Assembly (NCBI RefSeq): GCF_003334355.1
Contig: NZ_QOWP01000001.1
Reading direction: 5' to 3' (one strand)
DNA: 64,000 nt
Origin: Escherichia coli
GTDB taxonomy: Bacteria; Pseudomonadota; Gammaproteobacteria; Enterobacterales; Enterobacteriaceae
Part shown: one piece after another, positions 23,579-28,000 of the stretch
Numbering within the stretch: the first letter of the stretch is position 1
How the letters are laid out: the number at the start of each line of letters is the position of its first letter
The notes under the pieces: model-generated
The model's database searches: none
Told to the model about the DNA's origin: nothing
What the model saw: the letters and a program-made list of their open reading frames with translations, nothing else
Position numbers and translations under genes: made by a program

Positions 23579-24508
23579 CTACTCCGTTGGAGGTAGCCAC
23601 GGACGTCCCAGCGCCGATCCCTGTACGCCATGTTCATTCAGATAGCGATCCAGCTCGACCATTCCCGTCCATCGATTTTCGCACCACAGCGGAGCAAGCA
23701 GCGTCGGGCGACGGGCGCTGGCGGAAATGCGGTGGTAGATCACTTCCGGTGGCGTATGGCGAATCATTTCTCCGGCAGTGAGCGTGTAATCCTCCAGTTC
23801 AATACCGTTCAAACGCCCCGCTTCCCAGGCTTTCGCCATAATGCTGCCTTTCACAATATGCAGCGGATGCAGCTTTATGCCGTCCACGCCGGTTTCAACC
23901 ACTCGCTCCAGCGTTTGCAAACATTCAGCCTGCCCTTCGCCAGGCAGGCCGACAATTAAGTGGGAACACACCTTCAGCCCGCGCTGACGTGCCAGCTGGG
24001 TTGTACGCTGATAACAGGCAAAATCATGGCCGCGGTTGATGCGATGCAGTGTTTTGTCGTGGGCGGTTTGTAGCCCCAGCTCCAGCCACACTTCGTAACC
24101 CTGGTCCTTATATTCGCAAAGCAGATCCAGCACCGCATCCGGCACGCAGTCCGGGCGGGTACCAACACACAAACCGACAATATTGGCCTGGCTCACCGCC
24201 TGCTGATACATAGAACGCAGCACCTGAACTTCCGCAAAGGTGCTGGTATACGCCTGAAAGTAGGCCAGATAGCGTTTAGCACGGTTAACTAAATTCGCCT
24301 GGTGCGCCAGTTGCTCGGCAATGGAACGATGCTGCTGCGCTTCATCGGCAAACGAGGCCACATTACAGAATGTGCAGCCACCACGCCCGATGGTACCGTC
24401 ACGGTTAGGGCAGCTAAAACCGCCGTGCAGCGTCAGCTTATGCACCTTTTGCCCATAACGACGGGTGAGATCACCACCAAACATATTGACTAATTTCTGT
24501 AACTGCAT
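23579..24508 (-). CDS. yhcC: Radical SAM protein YhcC
   Basis: Track ORF trimmed to MQLQKLVNMFGGDLTRRYGQKVHKLTLHGGFSCPNRDG... (309 aa). Confidence 0.88.
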   Translation of the reverse strand: MQLQKLVNMFGGDLTRRYGQKVHKLTLHGGFSCPNRDGTIGRGGCTFCNVASFADEAQQHRSIAEQLAHQANLVNRAKRYLAYFQAYTSTFAEVQVLRSMYQQAVSQANIVGLCVGTRPDCVPDAVLDLLCEYKDQGYEVWLELGLQTAHDKTLHRINRGHDFACYQRTTQLARQRGLKVCSHLIVGLPGEGQAECLQTLERVVETGVDGIKLHPLHIVKGSIMAKAWEAGRLNGIELEDYTLTAGEMIRHTPPEVIYHRISASARRPTLLAPLWCENRWTGMVELDRYLNEHGVQGSALGRPWLPPTE

Positions 24509-24599
24509 AATCTGATAGACCGCGCCTTGAAAAGAGGCCAAAGCCTGCCATTTTTAGCTCAATTCGGCGATGACCTGGATCAATCGTCCCGGCCTGCTT

Positions 24600-24962
24600 T
24601 TATCAACTGCATAATCAATCAAAATTACCGAAATTTCATGCATAATCACATAAATCACTTTTGCTTATCTTGTGTCAGATTTTTTTATCTCCTTATGGAT
24701 TTTAGGCAAAAACAGTAGCATGAAACGTCATTACCAATTAAGGCAGTATAAAATGCTGGTTTTGTCGTCAGTTCAAGGCAGGATAAGGGTTAACACGCCT
24801 TTATGACAGTCAGGAATTGACTGTTTCTCTAACGACTTCCCTTTTAGCCTTAAAGATAAAATCTATTTTAATTTCAGTCAGTTAATAAAGAATTTTGCGC
24901 TAAAGCACATTTCTGTACCAATAAGCTTGCTATTTGACCTGTATCAGCTTTCCCGATAAGTT
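24600..24962 (+). promoter_or_regulatory. AT-rich gltBD upstream control region with candidate sigma70 promoter
   Basis: About 360 bp of AT-rich DNA upstream of gltB; TTGACC at 24934-24939 followed by a weak -10 near 24957. The gltBDF promoter is remembered as Lrp/IHF dependent; individual sites are not resolved here. Confidence 0.4.
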
Positions 24963-25089
24963 GGAAATCCGCTGGAAGCTTTCTGGATGAGCAGCCTGCT
25001 CATCATATTTATGCAGTAATTGAGATCCCCTCTTCACCGTATTAACCGATGCGAAAAGGACAACAAGGGGGCGAATGCGAGGCGCGCGT

Positions 25090-28000
25090 ATGACACGCAA
25101 ACCCCGTCGCCACGCTCTTTCTGTGCCCGTGCGCAGCGGTTCGGAAGTGGGGTTCCCGCAGAGCCTGGGGGAGGTTCACGATATGTTGTACGATAAATCC
25201 CTTGAGAGGGATAACTGTGGTTTCGGCCTGATCGCCCACATAGAAGGCGAACCTAGCCACAAGGTAGTGCGTACTGCAATACACGCACTGGCCCGCATGC
25301 AGCACCGTGGCGCGATTCTCGCCGATGGTAAAACCGGTGACGGTTGCGGCTTGCTGTTACAAAAACCGGATCGCTTTTTTCGCATCGTTGCGCAGGAGCG
25401 CGGCTGGCGTTTAGCGAAAAACTACGCCGTCGGGATGCTATTCCTGAATAAAGATCCTGAACTCGCCGCTGCCGCACGCCGCATCGTTGAAGAAGAGCTG
25501 CAACGCGAAACCTTGTCGATTGTGGGCTGGCGTGATGTCCCCACTAACGAAGGCGTGCTGGGTGAAATCGCCCTCTCCTCTCTGCCACGCATTGAGCAAA
25601 TTTTTGTGAACGCCCCGGCAGGCTGGCGTCCACGCGATATGGAGCGCCGTCTGTTTATCGCCCGCCGCCGCATTGAAAAGCGTCTCGAAGCCGACAAAGA
25701 CTTCTACGTCTGTAGCCTGTCGAATCTGGTGAACATCTATAAAGGTCTGTGTATGCCGGCGGATCTGCCGCGCTTTTATCTGGATCTTGCGGACCTGCGT
25801 CTGGAATCGGCCATTTGCCTGTTCCACCAGCGCTTCTCCACTAACACCGTACCGCGCTGGCCGCTGGCGCAACCGTTCCGCTATCTGGCGCATAACGGTG
25901 AAATCAACACCATCACCGGTAACCGCCAATGGGCGCGTGCGCGTACCTATAAATTCCAGACGCCGCTTATCCCTGATCTGCACGACGCCGCACCGTTCGT
26001 CAACGAAACCGGCTCTGACTCCAGTTCCATGGATAACATGCTGGAACTGCTGCTGGCAGGCGGGATGGATATCATCCGCGCCATGCGTCTATTAGTACCA
26101 CCCGCCTGGCAGAACAACCCGGATATGGACCCGGAACTGCGTGCCTTCTTTGACTTTAACTCCATGCATATGGAGCCGTGGGATGGCCCGGCGGGCATCG
26201 TGATGTCCGACGGTCGTTTTGCCGCCTGTAACCTCGACCGTAACGGTCTGCGTCCGGCGCGCTACGTCATCACCAAAGATAAGCTCATCACCTGCGCCTC
26301 TGAAGTCGGTATCTGGGATTACCAGCCTGACGAAGTGGTCGAAAAAGGCCGCGTCGGGCCAGGCGAACTGATGGTTATCGACACCCGCAGTGGGCGTATT
26401 CTGCACTCGGCAGAAACCGATGACGATCTGAAAAGCCGCCATCCATATAAAGAGTGGATGGAGAAAAACGTCCGCCGACTGGTACCGTTTGAAGATCTGC
26501 CCGATGAAGAAGTGGGTAGCCGCGAACTGGACGACGACACGCTTGCCAGCTACCAGAAACAGTTTAACTACAGCGCGGAAGAGCTGGACTCCGTAATTCG
26601 CGTACTGGGCGAAAACGGTCAGGAAGCGGTCGGTTCGATGGGCGATGATACCCCATTCGCCGTGCTCTCCAGTCAGCCGCGCATTATTTACGACTACTTC
26701 CGCCAGCAGTTTGCCCAGGTGACTAACCCGCCAATCGACCCGCTGCGTGAAGCGCATGTTATGTCGCTCGCCACCAGTATCGGTCGTGAAATGAACGTCT
26801 TTTGCGAAGCAGAGGGCCAGGCGCACCGTTTAAGCTTTAAATCGCCGATTCTGCTCTACTCCGATTTCAAACAGCTCACGACGATGAAAGAGGAGCACTA
26901 CCGCGCAGATACGCTGGATATCACCTTTGACGTCACTAAAACCACGCTCGAAGCGACAGTCAAAGAGCTGTGCGACAAAGCCGAAAAAATGGTACGTAGC
27001 GGCACCGTGCTGCTGGTGCTCTCCGACCGGAATATCGCTAAAGATCGCCTGCCGGTTCCAGCCCCGATGGCGGTTGGCGCGATCCAGACCCGTCTGGTCG
27101 ATCAAAGCCTGCGTTGCGATGCCAACATCATCGTCGAAACCGCCAGCGCCCGCGATCCGCACCACTTCGCCGTGTTGCTGGGCTTCGGCGCGACGGCTAT
27201 TTATCCATACCTTGCCTATGAAACGCTGGGCCGCCTGGTAGACACCCATGCGATTGCCAAAGATTATCGTACCGTGATGCTCAACTACCGTAACGGCATC
27301 AACAAAGGCTTGTACAAAATCATGTCCAAAATGGGCATCTCCACCATCGCCTCTTACCGCTGCTCGAAACTGTTTGAAGCGGTCGGTCTACACGATGATG
27401 TAGTGGGCCTGTGCTTCCAGGGGGCGGTCAGCCGCATTGGTGGGGCAAGCTTTGAAGACTTCCAGCAGGATCTGCTGAATCTGTCGAAACGTGCCTGGCT
27501 GGCGCGTAAGCCCATCAGCCAGGGCGGCCTGCTGAAATACGTCCACGGCGGCGAATACCACGCCTACAACCCGGACGTGGTGCGCACGCTGCAACAAGCG
27601 GTACAAAGCGGCGAGTACAGCGACTATCAGGAATACGCGAAGCTGGTTAATGAGCGTCCGGCAACCACGCTGCGCGATCTGCTGGCAATTACGCCGGGTG
27701 AAAACGCGGTCAACATTGCTGATGTTGAACCGGCAAGCGAACTGTTTAAACGCTTTGATACCGCCGCGATGTCTATCGGCGCGTTAAGCCCGGAAGCCCA
27801 CGAGGCGCTGGCGGAAGCGATGAACAGCATCGGCGGTAATTCGAACTCCGGTGAAGGCGGCGAAGACCCGGCGCGCTACGGCACCAACAAAGTGTCGCGC
27901 ATCAAGCAGGTGGCTTCCGGTCGCTTTGGGGTTACTCCGGCGTATCTGGTCAATGCCGACGTCATTCAGATTAAAGTCGCCCAGGGCGCGAAGCCAGGCG

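Follow-up and report, generated by a model that had tools for sequence, protein, structure and literature searches.

The yhcC-gltB locus of E. coli raises two linked questions, namely where gltB translation begins and what the DNA in front of it consists of. The window, i.e., the whole stretch of 64,000 nucleotides analysed here, is E. coli chromosomal DNA, and the region is matched at 95 to 100% in 5417 of 5426 complete E. coli genomes. Over positions 24509 to 25230, it differs from K-12 MG1655 at 5 bases in 722 nt, all upstream of the -35 element, and the core promoter and 5' untranslated region (UTR) contain zero differences. The left border of the intergenic region and the positions of these differences are as follows.

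24506-24508, minus strand: start codon of yhcC, left border of the intergenic region (RefSeq, identical E. coli genome and K-12 MG1655)
24694, 24797, 24864, 24881 and 24931: bases that differ from MG1655; 24864 and 24881 are in or next to the IHF region

The maximal open reading frame of yhcC ends at TTG 24541, whereas the RefSeq start is at 24508. With the RefSeq starts of yhcC (24508) and gltB (25183), the intergenic DNA thus spans 24509 to 25182, which is 674 bp. The original prediction had described about 550 bp of non-coding, mostly AT-rich DNA before gltB; a non-coding stretch does exist, but its length and both of its borders required correction. The AT-rich description applies only to approximately 24590 to 24950 (GC content of 0.28 to 0.45 in 100-nt windows) and not to the 3' part (0.49 to 0.63 at 25000 to 25150), and this GC-richer part is where the earlier reading had put the N-terminal coding sequence. 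The flagged interval is composed of two parts, the divergent yhcC-gltB control region (24509 to 24966) and the first 123 nt of the gltB 5' UTR. With a probability of roughly 0.85, the whole explanation of the interval is a characterised control region followed by a conserved folded leader, with gltB starting at 25183 and encoding an 11-residue propeptide. The promoter architecture at gltB is already published, and the start question is already resolved in the current annotation. What appears to be new here, as judged by comparing sequences, is a conserved, apparently folded, Enterobacterales-specific 216-nt leader, which is a modestly interesting by-product of an ordinary locus.

The features on which the assignment of the gltB start depends are the following.

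25183-25185, plus strand: ATG start codon of gltB, the first of the 11 propeptide codons at 25183-25215 (RefSeq K-12 and identical strain)
25216-25218, plus strand: codon of the catalytic Cys, the N-terminal residue of GltB after maturation; in the alignment, this Cys corresponds to residue 1 of 1LLW and 1EA0/2VDC (mature chains)
25065-25120, plus strand: long hairpin P3, with ATG 25075 in an internal loop and an optional tip at 25086-25098 that carries ATG 25090 in its loop

Translation of gltB very probably starts at ATG 25183, and removal of the 11-residue propeptide would expose the catalytic Cys encoded at 25216. The ATG of the MLYDK sequence at 25183 is invariant in 52 of 52 non-redundant Enterobacterales leaders. 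An in-frame stop is located at most 14 codons upstream of this ATG in 25 of these leaders (7 codons upstream in five Enterobacteriaceae-type genomes, L005 to L009), and 36 of the 52 lack any in-frame ATG in the interval from the nearest upstream in-frame stop to the MLYDK ATG. In the other gamma-proteobacteria sampled, the start is mostly 0 to 4 codons upstream of the equivalent position. Indels upstream of 25183 in the cross-genus alignment are not multiples of three. The Shine-Dalgarno sequence of 25183, GGGGGAGG, is the best of the candidate starts, with -12.0 kcal/mol and a 6-nt spacing; the corresponding values are -10.5 kcal/mol with a 2-nt spacing for 25075 and -5.9 kcal/mol for 25090. 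Furthermore, the alignment to the precursor-length glutamate synthase chains in the PDB begins at the L of MLYDK, and the mature chains in the PDB begin at Cys.

The original prediction had placed the start at 25075 or 25090, both in frame and about 40 residues before the Cys. The frame and the distance were confirmed by counting (47 and 42 codons, respectively, before the Cys codon at 25216), but the choice between the two codons fails, as both are inside the 5' UTR and the third in-frame ATG at 25183 had been overlooked. A start at either codon, with a propeptide of 42 to 47 residues as in the older 1517-amino-acid annotation, is extremely unlikely. It is true that the E. coli frame is open from 25020, that purine-rich sequence is found upstream of both ATGs, that the 1517-amino-acid version is still used in the annotation behind Adams 2021, and that long propeptides occur in relatives, e.g., the Azospirillum brasilense precursor aligns from residue 28. 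However, the extension is not conserved and is interrupted by stops or frame-breaking indels in most genera, ATG 25075 is ACG or ACA in several genera, and the protein homology stops at MLYDK. Both ATGs lie within a covarying RNA hairpin, the tip of which, carrying ATG 25090, is absent in 9 to 10 of 36 leaders. The substitutions also lack third-position bias, with only two of the seven Escherichia-level substitutions in 25075 to 25182 at third positions, and the RefSeq and K-12 curators have shifted the start to 25183. The 36 open codons upstream of 25183 have a GC content of 60% and a rough chance probability of 0.3 to 0.4, and their openness is hence unsurprising. The statement that the start is not settled by sequence alone is correct for a single sequence and incorrect once genera are compared, because that comparison fixes the conserved start at 25183. 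With regard to experiments on the gltB initiation codon, a search of TIS-profiling and N-terminomics papers, including the TRAINSPOTTER data, found no entry on gltB. Because the E. coli frame is open from 25075, minor initiation at that codon may occur in E. coli, and the same mature enzyme would result after propeptide removal.

The GltB propeptide can be compared with the Ntn-type glutamine amidotransferase propeptides of other glutamate synthase large subunits, i.e., A. brasilense GltB, Bacillus subtilis GltA, and Synechocystis Fd-GOGAT, with which it shares an LY...DNC motif just before the Cys. As in E. coli GltB, the catalytic Cys of the mature enzymes of this class must become residue 1. 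The conserved propeptide of E. coli is short (11 residues), and in the precursor-length chains of the PDB, the LYD equivalent begins at residue 12 in B. subtilis and at residue 28 in A. brasilense, which gives propeptides of roughly 20 and 36 residues, respectively. The E. coli propeptide length of 42 in the older literature stems from the superseded gltB start. Fusions to gltB, CRISPRi guides, and proteomics databases should use the start at 25183.

The control region upstream of the leader is described by the following features.

24517-24599, plus strand: small transcript, EcoCyc G0-10702, the Hfq-dependent 'yhcC-gltB' sRNA of Raghavan 2011; 24517 is the start of a hairpin and not a mapped 5' end
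24565-24588, unstranded: FNR site with the core ATGAC-CTGG-ATCAA at 24570-24583, a ChIP-chip target 24-mer of Grainger 2007
24606-24623 and 24627-24644, unstranded: two ARG boxes for ArgR, at -361 to -323 as compared with the published footprint of -361 to -318
24713-24727, 24744-24758, and palindrome 24806-24824, unstranded: Lrp-binding region, mapped centres at -247, -216, and -152
24854-24892 (-113 to -75), unstranded: IHF footprint region, coordinates from Paul 2007 (PMC1784095)
24891-24912 (-76 to -55), unstranded: repressive Crp site, from the published mutagenic primer gltcrp1, centre at -65.5
24934-24939 and 24957-24962, plus strand: core sigma-70 promoter, -35 TTGACC and -10 TAAGTT with a 17-bp spacer
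24967-25182, plus strand: gltB 5' UTR of 216 nt; transcription start site (TSS) from published numbering, identical to K-12

The expectation of a complex, nucleoid-protein-dependent promoter was borne out, as the published FNR, ArgR, Lrp, IHF, and Crp sites, the -35 and -10 elements, and the TSS all map onto the window. The region is the same locus as the E. coli K-12 gltBDF control region, without substantive difference (Ernsting 1993; Wiese 1997; Paul 2001, 2007). Lrp, IHF, Crp, and ArgR act on the gltB promoter (Paul et al. 2007, PMC1784095); in the published model, transcription is activated when IHF bends the DNA and thereby brings Lrp from its distant upstream sites to RNA polymerase, while Crp-cAMP and ArgR lower gltB transcription. 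The FNR 24-mer is listed as a ChIP-chip target for yhcC/gltB in Grainger 2007 (PMC1802558), and the site is nearly invariant in the alignment of Enterobacteriaceae. The two ARG boxes fit the consensus by eye at 13 and 12 of 16 positions. The centres of the Lrp sites have been published at -246, -215, and -152 (Paul 2007, PMC1784095), and the motif scan proposed together with the original prediction recovered only one of the known sites: 24744 to 24758 is one of only two 1-mismatch consensus matches in 64 kb, the site at 24713 to 24727 is a weak consensus match, and the palindrome is centred at 24815. The equivalent scan for IHF found no consensus match with at most 1 mismatch in the footprinted region, and its 60 matches in the window, as compared with 49 expected, are at chance level. 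The best IHF-like core (24872 to 24884) has 2 mismatches and the consensus scan is uninformative here; an ATCA...TTA core recurs in the alignment at the IHF position in other genera.

The TSS is near 24967, to within about 2 nt, as derived from the published numbering via primer and site positions; i.e., the Crp site at 24891 to 24912 with its published centre of -65.5 places +1 at 24967. The distance of 21 bp between the Crp site and the promoter agrees with Paul 2007 (PMC1784095). With +1 at 24967, the centre of the FNR site (24576.5) is at -390.5, whereas the table of Grainger 2007 (PMC1802558) gives -399.5, which implies a TSS 9 bp further downstream. Many gamma-proteobacteria have the pattern TTGACC-N17-TAA(G/C/T)TT in front of gltB. 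A generic promoter scan did not find the gltB promoter, the real -10 element of which is weak. At the upstream end of the control region, the 3' end of G0-10702 at 24599 corresponds to K-12 3354141 (Term-seq, Adams 2021 supplement), and the yhcC-gltB sRNA is mentioned in PMC4070566. The hairpin at 24517 to 24540 is conserved while both of its arms change, and its U-G pairs fit the plus strand only, as judged by eye and uncounted. ECS018, a cis-antisense RNA listed for 'gltBDF', was considered and set aside; it is located in the gltD-gltF spacer, and its sequence does not occur verbatim in the window.

The 5' UTR is conserved across Enterobacterales (117 leaders, 52 of them non-redundant), and this leader is probably a functional RNA. 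From 5' to 3', it consists of P0 and P1, a pyrimidine box, P3, and a hairpin that covers the Shine-Dalgarno sequence; apart from P3, which is listed above, these elements are as follows.

24971-24974, plus strand: GCUG, which possibly pairs with CAGU of the invariant block to form helix P0
24986-25004, plus strand: hairpin P1, arms at 24986-24992 and 24998-25004, identified by covariation
25004-25019, plus strand: invariant block CAUAUUUAUGCAGUAA, which holds the mini-ORF AUG-CAG-UAA at 25011-25019
25025-25034, plus strand: pyrimidine box AUCCCCUCUU (UUCCCUCU in most genera), a candidate anti-Shine-Dalgarno sequence
25115 (K-12 3354657), plus strand: mapped RNA 3' end (Term-seq, Adams 2021 supplement), immediately downstream of P3 and followed by the U-rich CUCUUUCU
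25161-25177, plus strand: Shine-Dalgarno hairpin GAGCCU-GGGGG-AGGUUC, which contains GGGGGAGG at 25167-25174

In P1, six of the seven pairs are changed on both sides and 94% of the cells are paired; in Photorhabdus and L094, a hairpin with a different sequence is kept at the P1 position. A terminator scan calls P1 terminator-like, and no 3' end is reported at P1, so that it was rejected as a terminator. P0 is 100% paired yet almost never varies, so that its pairing is putative. The block CAUAUUUAUGCAGUAA is invariant in the 15 leaders that were found through the protein; in the metagenome set, the block had to be invariant, as it was part of the search pattern. More generally, the metagenome-derived leaders were chosen by a search pattern inside the 5' module, which inflates the apparent invariance of the module.

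The AUG-CAG-UAA of this block might be a translated two-codon mini-ORF that acts as a glutamine-codon sensor or as a ribosome standby site. None of the 15 protein-anchored leaders departs from AUG CAG, and a stop comes next in 13 of them, as it does in 47 of the 52 leaders of the non-redundant set; the surroundings are A/U-rich with a probability of 0.63 that the AUG is unpaired, and glutamine is a substrate of the enzyme. On the other hand, the mini-ORF has no Shine-Dalgarno sequence (+1.2 kcal/mol), UUA replaces the stop in five leaders, and Rosenbergiella has UUC AGU AA, in which the AUG is lost while CAGUAA and its partner ACUG are kept. Translation of these two codons is therefore very unlikely to be the role of the block.

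A covariance model of the 5' module gave a single match in the window, at the gltB leader, and found no copies outside Enterobacterales-type leaders among 66 other gltB loci. A partial resemblance seen by eye in Aeromonas and Vibrio (UUAUGCAG) was considered as a homologue and was unsupported by this model. A scan of 24300 to 25400 against Rfam 15 at E <= 1 returned only SQ1002, with 17 bits against a gathering score of 128, which is a chance match.

For P3, an alignment of 36 sequences (A4) gave 93% of cells paired, as compared with 39 to 56% when the alignment was slid, with 6 pairs changed on both sides; none of 500 shuffles reached the observed score. The tip is missing from the 9 to 10 sequences noted above, and per-sequence folds place a long hairpin at P3 in most leaders across the sampled clades. 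These observations bear on the alternative that the conservation past the TSS reflects DNA-level sites (repressor, roadblock, or promoter-proximal elements) rather than RNA structure. The most invariant blocks, +3 to +12 and +38 to +53, never vary and consequently give no covariation signal; the region lies within a promoter known to bind many proteins; and the thermodynamic z-score is about 0 (z = 0.09), so that shuffling the E. coli leader does not weaken its predicted fold. P1, however, is located between both invariant blocks, changes both of its arms and yet stays paired, and is wholly replaced in two lineages, and P3 behaves likewise, with a dispensable tip. The G-U pairs fit the transcribed strand only, which is expected of RNA and not of protein-binding DNA. 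DNA-level sites in place of RNA structure are thus improbable, although such a site within the invariant blocks could exist alongside the RNA structure.

The mapped 3' end at 25115 was filed as 'internal, 25 nt into gltB' (Adams 2021) because the old start at 25090 was used; the superseded 1517-amino-acid start, which is still in circulation, thus made a published leader 3' end 'ORF-internal'. The leader could be mainly a transcription attenuator, in which release would occur after P3 near 25115 to 25122 and pairing between the pyrimidine box and AGAGGG, by opening the base of P3, would regulate read-through. The 3' end is directly after P3 and before CUCUUUCU, P3 is GC-rich and flanked by A-rich sequence on its 5' side and by U-rich sequence on its 3' side, and 90% of cells keep the pyrimidine box paired with AGAGGG, both partners having changed in 3 of the pairs. 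In partial resemblance to classical attenuators, the gltB leader has a stable hairpin with a U-rich stretch after it and a mapped 3' end. The U-tract, however, is 3 to 4 nt from the stem and interrupted by C, the tract is not U-rich in Yersinia-type leaders, and P3 was not called by the terminator scan. The Term-seq signal is modest, with a single occurrence in the file, and a 3' end at the base of a hairpin arises equally from exonuclease trimming after cleavage or from downstream Rho-dependent termination. The leader also differs from leader-peptide attenuators (trp, his) in that no leader peptide with regulatory codons is present, and the sole conserved AUG opens the two-codon ORF described above. 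Attenuation as the main function is accordingly rather unlikely.

The hairpin over the Shine-Dalgarno sequence has 98% of its cells paired across the 52 leaders, and the few substitutions preserve pairing (G-U becomes A-U or G-C); as the hairpin almost never varies, its pairing is putative. Pairing of the pyrimidine box with the Shine-Dalgarno sequence is maintained in 98% of cells, with slid controls at 50 to 83%, and a slid control for its pairing with AGAGGG at the P3 base reaches 91%. The pyrimidine-box pairings are purine/pyrimidine-rich and statistically indistinguishable from composition effects. A default RNAalifold run on the whole leader recovered no helices other than P0, P1, the Shine-Dalgarno hairpin, and one short helix. 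A ribosum run paired the invariant block over a long range with the start-codon region; this pairing was discarded, as variants of the spacer between the Shine-Dalgarno sequence and AUG (GAAAUG, GUUAUG, and others) break it uncompensated. Like the leaders that sequester the Shine-Dalgarno sequence in translational riboswitches and RNA thermometers, gltB has its Shine-Dalgarno sequence in a conserved hairpin and an upstream pyrimidine box with two possible purine-rich partners. In contrast to riboswitches, the gltB leader has no Rfam family, known ligand, or conserved aptamer-like multi-helix junction. Mutations in the 'Shine-Dalgarno sequences of the untranslated region' of gltBDF were reportedly described by Velazquez et al. 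in 1991 (J Bacteriol 173:3261).

Taken as a conserved folded RNA, the leader would set GOGAT output after transcription initiation. Its own hairpin or the pyrimidine box would keep the Shine-Dalgarno sequence partly paired; trans-acting regulators would land on the 5' module, which carries the invariant GGA/CUGGAAGC, with CsrA (mRNA stability) and/or RyhB (iron sparing) as candidate inputs; and some gltB transcripts would end or be cut at 25115. A tentative extension is that the leader might be an undescribed Enterobacterales riboregulator, in which the pyrimidine box would toggle between a decoy purine tract at the P3 base and the Shine-Dalgarno sequence, thereby setting both read-through at 25115 and initiation, and in which the 5' module (CUGGAAGC, P1, and UUAUGCAGUAA) would sense an input in trans. 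That input would be RyhB (iron), CsrA (carbon), or some other protein or a metabolite. If this is true, the riboregulator would add a post-transcriptional layer to enteric nitrogen assimilation.

The assignment of any one named effector is doubtful. GGA at +9 to +11 is invariant, GGA at +19 to +21 is found in most genera and is CGA in several, and a further GGA is inside GGGGGAGG; the gltB leader therefore shows the sequence pattern of CsrA leaders, which have at least two GGA motifs, usually divided between a hairpin loop and the Shine-Dalgarno sequence. CsrA shields the flhDC leader from RNase E through two sites at its very 5' end, and the gltB leader can be likened to it by the invariant GGA near its own 5' end. 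In E. coli, an earlier study recovered gltB mRNA together with CsrA, and the half-life of this mRNA is shorter in a csrA mutant (4.7 min instead of 7.9 min); CLIP-seq shows no CsrA peak on gltB, and its translation efficiency is unchanged in the mutant. In Vibrio alginolyticus, CsrA binds gltB mRNA and represses it more than 70-fold (PMC12298160), so that the direction of the effect differs, with stabilisation in E. coli and repression in V. alginolyticus. In Vibrionaceae, the gltB leaders present GGA in the loop of a hairpin that precedes the Shine-Dalgarno sequence, and they are not alignable with the enterobacterial leaders.

Upon RyhB induction, the ribosome occupancy of gltB falls about two-fold while its RNA level is unchanged, and OmrA/B lower both GltB and GltD protein. 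The invariant leader sequence CUGGAAGC is complementary to the RyhB core: positions +5 to +13 can form 9 contiguous pairs with the core and 6 more, with 12 in one clade and weaker pairing in Rosenbergiella. The duplex has an energy of -26.6 kcal/mol as compared with -22.7 +/- 2.8 kcal/mol for shuffled sequences, 9% of which do as well, which is within the chance range. The site is approximately 200 nt from the ribosome-binding site, and classic occlusion of the Shine-Dalgarno sequence would hence not apply. FsrA/gltAB in B. subtilis is a case of iron-sparing sRNA control of glutamate synthase, and IsrR/gltB2 in Staphylococcus aureus may be another parallel to the candidate RyhB/gltB pair; GOGAT is an Fe-S enzyme. 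Several global studies, on RyhB, OmrA/B, and CsrA, found that GltB is affected after transcription but mapped no site, and the leader offers a concrete, mutable target for these observations.

The window is E. coli chromosome, and its segment 24400-25300 is found, with 95-100% identity, in 5417 of the 5426 complete E. coli genomes. Over 24509-25230 there are five base differences from K-12 MG1655, all 5' of the -35 hexamer. In RefSeq, for an identical strain and for MG1655 alike, yhcC starts at 24508 on the minus strand and gltB at 25183, so that the non-coding interval is 24509-25182 (674 bp). The original prediction was right about the existence of a non-coding stretch but not about its borders, 24542-25089, which derive from the longest possible yhcC reading frame (TTG at 24541) and the ATG at 25090. 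Its description of the interval as mostly AT-rich applies to approximately 24590-24950 (GC content, 0.28-0.45) and not to 25000-25150 (0.49-0.63); i.e., the AT-richness is confined to the middle of the interval. The observation was thus correct in part, and both of the start codons that it considered for gltB, 25075 and 25090, are wrong, a third ATG having been overlooked. The three in-frame ATGs 5' of the catalytic Cys codon (25216) are as follows.

25075: 47 codons before the Cys codon; Shine-Dalgarno (SD) energy, -10.5 kcal/mol; spacing, 2 nt
25090: 42 codons before the Cys codon; start in the older 1517-aa annotation; SD energy, -5.9 kcal/mol
25183: 11 codons before the Cys codon; SD sequence GGGGGAGG, -12.0 kcal/mol; spacing, 6 nt

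The SD sequence of 25183 is the strongest and best spaced of the three, and we assign the gltB start to this ATG with a probability of roughly 0.93. Loci of gltB were taken from 80 species genomes, and the frame was examined 5' of the position equivalent to 25183. An in-frame stop lies 7 codons upstream of it in five Enterobacteriaceae-type genomes (L005-L009), and the starts in the other gamma-proteobacteria of the sample are mostly 0-4 codons upstream (MA-LYD..., MS-LYH...). When these loci are aligned, indels whose lengths are not divisible by three appear between positions 25040 and 25180. A further 117 leaders came from a metagenome scan, and 52 non-redundant leaders were counted. None of the 52 lacks the ATG of MLYDK, the first residues encoded from 25183; an in-frame stop occurs no more than 14 codons 5' of it in 25, and in 36 no in-frame ATG lies between this codon and the nearest 5' stop. 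In the frame of the upstream ATGs, two of seven substitutions across 25075-25182 in Escherichia-type leaders are at third positions. The Cys aligned with codon 25216 is the first residue of the solved mature glutamate synthases 1LLW and 1EA0/2VDC, and precursor-length chains (B. subtilis and A. brasilense) align from the Leu of MLYDK onward, with no extension upstream of it. Direct initiation-site data for gltB were not found among the published data searched. By comparison of sequences, 25183 is the conserved start; minor initiation at 25075 may occur in E. coli and, owing to removal of the propeptide, would leave no trace in the mature protein.

The reading of the AT-rich region as a nucleoid-protein-dependent promoter is borne out but not new: the locus is already known, and the transcription start and the Lrp, IHF, Crp, ArgR, and FNR sites are taken from published papers. 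Paul et al. 2007 (PMC1784095) gave regulator positions relative to the transcript start; the Crp site combined with its published center of -65.5 sets +1 at 24967. The sites map onto the window as follows.

24565-24588: FNR site (24-mer), a ChIP-chip target for yhcC/gltB (Grainger et al. 2007)
24606-24623 and 24627-24644: two ARG boxes (-361 to -323; published footprint, -361 to -318)
24744-24758: Lrp site, one mismatch to the consensus, center -216 (published, -215)
24806-24824: perfect palindrome ACAGTCA-N5-TGACTGT, center -152, equal to the published Lrp position
24891-24912: Crp site (22-mer), placed by a mutagenic primer of Paul et al. 2007 (PMC1784095)
24934-24939: -35 hexamer TTGACC, starting 21 bp after the Crp site, in agreement with Paul et al. 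2007 (PMC1784095)
17 bp after the -35 hexamer: -10 hexamer TAAGTT

Of the two motif scans proposed, that for Lrp returned 24744-24758 as the best consensus match in the window, and that for IHF was uninformative in this region. TTGACC-N17-TAAnTT recurs 5' of gltB well outside the enterics among the loci compared. The FNR 24-mer is nearly invariant in Enterobacteriaceae, with TGAC-N4-ATCA retained in Yersinia; its center is -390.5 in the numbering of Paul et al. 2007 and -399.5 in the table of Grainger et al. 2007, a 9-bp discrepancy. Since it lies approximately 68 bp from the start codon of yhcC, which encodes a radical SAM protein, it may serve yhcC rather than gltB. At the position of the 24806-24824 palindrome, other Enterobacteriaceae and Yersinia (L002-L012) carry AGTGA-N6-TCACA, a near-consensus Crp-type palindrome, so a replacement of the upstream activator site may have taken place within the Escherichia lineage. 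The block AATCACTTTTGCTTATC at 24653-24670 (-314 to -297), flanked by the ARG boxes and the distal Lrp site, is conserved as far as Yersinia (GATTAnnTTTTCTTAT); the literature examined on the region assigns no factor to it. In S. Typhimurium, MarA ChIP-seq is reported to give a peak in the yhcC-gltB intergenic region, with GCAAACGCTGAAAAA as its marbox.

[quoted passage not shown] The leader, 24967-25182, is non-coding by comparison, matched no family in an Rfam search, and is, as far as could be found, an undescribed part of the locus. Its elements, examined in alignments of the 52 leaders (A2) and of 36 Enterobacteriaceae-type leaders (A4), are as follows.

24986-24992/24998-25004, plus strand: hairpin P1, 94% of cells paired (A2)
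25025-25034, plus strand: pyrimidine box, possible partners being the SD sequence or AGAGGG at the P3 base
25035-25045 (versus A2 columns 79-98): hairpin P2, GCAAGU...ACUUGU, in most genera
25065-25120, plus strand: hairpin P3, 93% paired versus 39-56% for slid (shifted-partner) controls (A4)
25161-25177, plus strand: SD hairpin GAGCCU-GGGG(G)-AGGUUC, near-invariant, 98% paired (52 leaders)

Six of the seven P1 pairs are altered on both sides in A2, and two lineages have a hairpin of unrelated sequence at this position. In P3, six pairs are altered on both sides, and the observed score was reached by none of 500 shuffles (A4). The P3 tip hairpin is missing in 9-10 of the 36 sequences, and when the leaders are folded one by one, most of them, across the sampled clades, form a long hairpin here. 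The few changes in the SD hairpin preserve its pairs. P1 and P3 are thus seen, by comparison, to be maintained as RNA helices; conservation acting purely on the DNA is improbable because of this covariation. The fold of the E. coli leader itself is no better than that of shuffled sequence (z = 0.09). Of the rejected start codons, 25075 lies inside the P3 internal loop, where several genera have ACG or ACA instead, and 25090 belongs to the loop of the tip, which is dispensable. AUG-CAG-UAA as a translated mini-ORF is very improbable, because Rosenbergiella loses the AUG yet keeps its pairing partner.

E. coli and its nearest relatives have lost P2. Their lineage also shows three changes that go together: the pyrimidine box has C in place of U, AGAGGG has become AGGGGG, and the SD sequence has gained a G. 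In E. coli, the box substitution is accompanied by one more G in each of the two purine tracts. Alternation of the box between its two partners is only a lead, because slid controls pair at 83-91%. The invariance of the 5' blocks, which with P1 form the 5' module, is partly by construction in the metagenome set because the search pattern lay inside them; the 15 protein-anchored leaders alone are unbiased in this respect. A covariance model of the module has a single match in the window, at the leader, and none outside Enterobacterales-type leaders among the gltB loci searched. In L126 (metagenome contig Ga0209370_1001872), a deletion removes the SD hairpin and start codon (...GCGCCACGG|TTGTACGATAAA), which is either an assembly artifact or a gltB pseudogene. 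This conserved folded leader, without an Rfam entry or assigned function, is a modestly interesting by-product that can be tested with ease.

With its SD sequence partly sequestered, the leader would modulate mRNA fate and translation initiation, and the 5' module may be the receiver of a trans-acting regulator. Term-seq (Adams et al. 2021) placed a 3' end at K-12 3354657 (window 25115), directly 3' of P3 and ahead of CUCUUUCU; its listing as "internal, 25 nt into gltB" reflects use of the old start. Together with P3, this end makes transcription attenuation a serious, if rather unlikely, rival or complement to this reading. Among candidate effectors, induction of RyhB lowers gltB ribosome occupancy approximately two-fold with RNA unchanged, and the study counts gltB among new, unvalidated targets. 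With a RyhB query checked against E. coli genomes, leader positions +5 to +13 (GCUGGAAGC) form nine contiguous pairs with the RyhB core, plus UGAGCA with UGCUCA, a duplex equaled by 9% of shuffled leaders; the complementarity reaches 12 pairs in one clade. The gltB mRNA copurified with CsrA, and loss of csrA function shortened its half-life from 7.9 min to 4.7 min; gltB has no CsrA CLIP-seq peak, and its translation efficiency is unchanged. In V. alginolyticus, gltB mRNA is bound and strongly repressed by CsrA. A hairpin whose loop contains GGA, CUGUC-(N)GGA(N)-GACAG, is common to the gltB leaders of Vibrionaceae (L017 1459-1473, L018 1459-1473, and L021 1458-1472), where it lies approximately 10-15 nt 5' of an AAGGGAG SD sequence; this classic two-site CsrA arrangement agrees with the reported binding. 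OmrA/B overproduction lowers GltB and GltD protein.

Among neighboring RNAs, ECS018 is a cis-antisense candidate sRNA of the gltD-gltF spacer (downstream of 31074) that was not detected by northern blot; its sequence has no verbatim match in the window, and Term-seq 3' ends lie in that spacer at K-12 3360660 and 3360783. The Term-seq supplement of Adams et al. 2021 also lists a plus-strand 3' end at K-12 3354141 (window 24599), within the EcoCyc gene G0-10702.

24517-24599, plus strand: small transcript, with the 3' end mapped at 24599 and 24517 taken as the hairpin start

By its position, this transcript is presumably the Hfq-dependent "yhcC-gltB" sRNA of Raghavan et al. 2011, as cited in another paper. 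Both arms of its hairpin (24517-24540) vary across genera, and by eye the U-G pairs suit the plus strand only.
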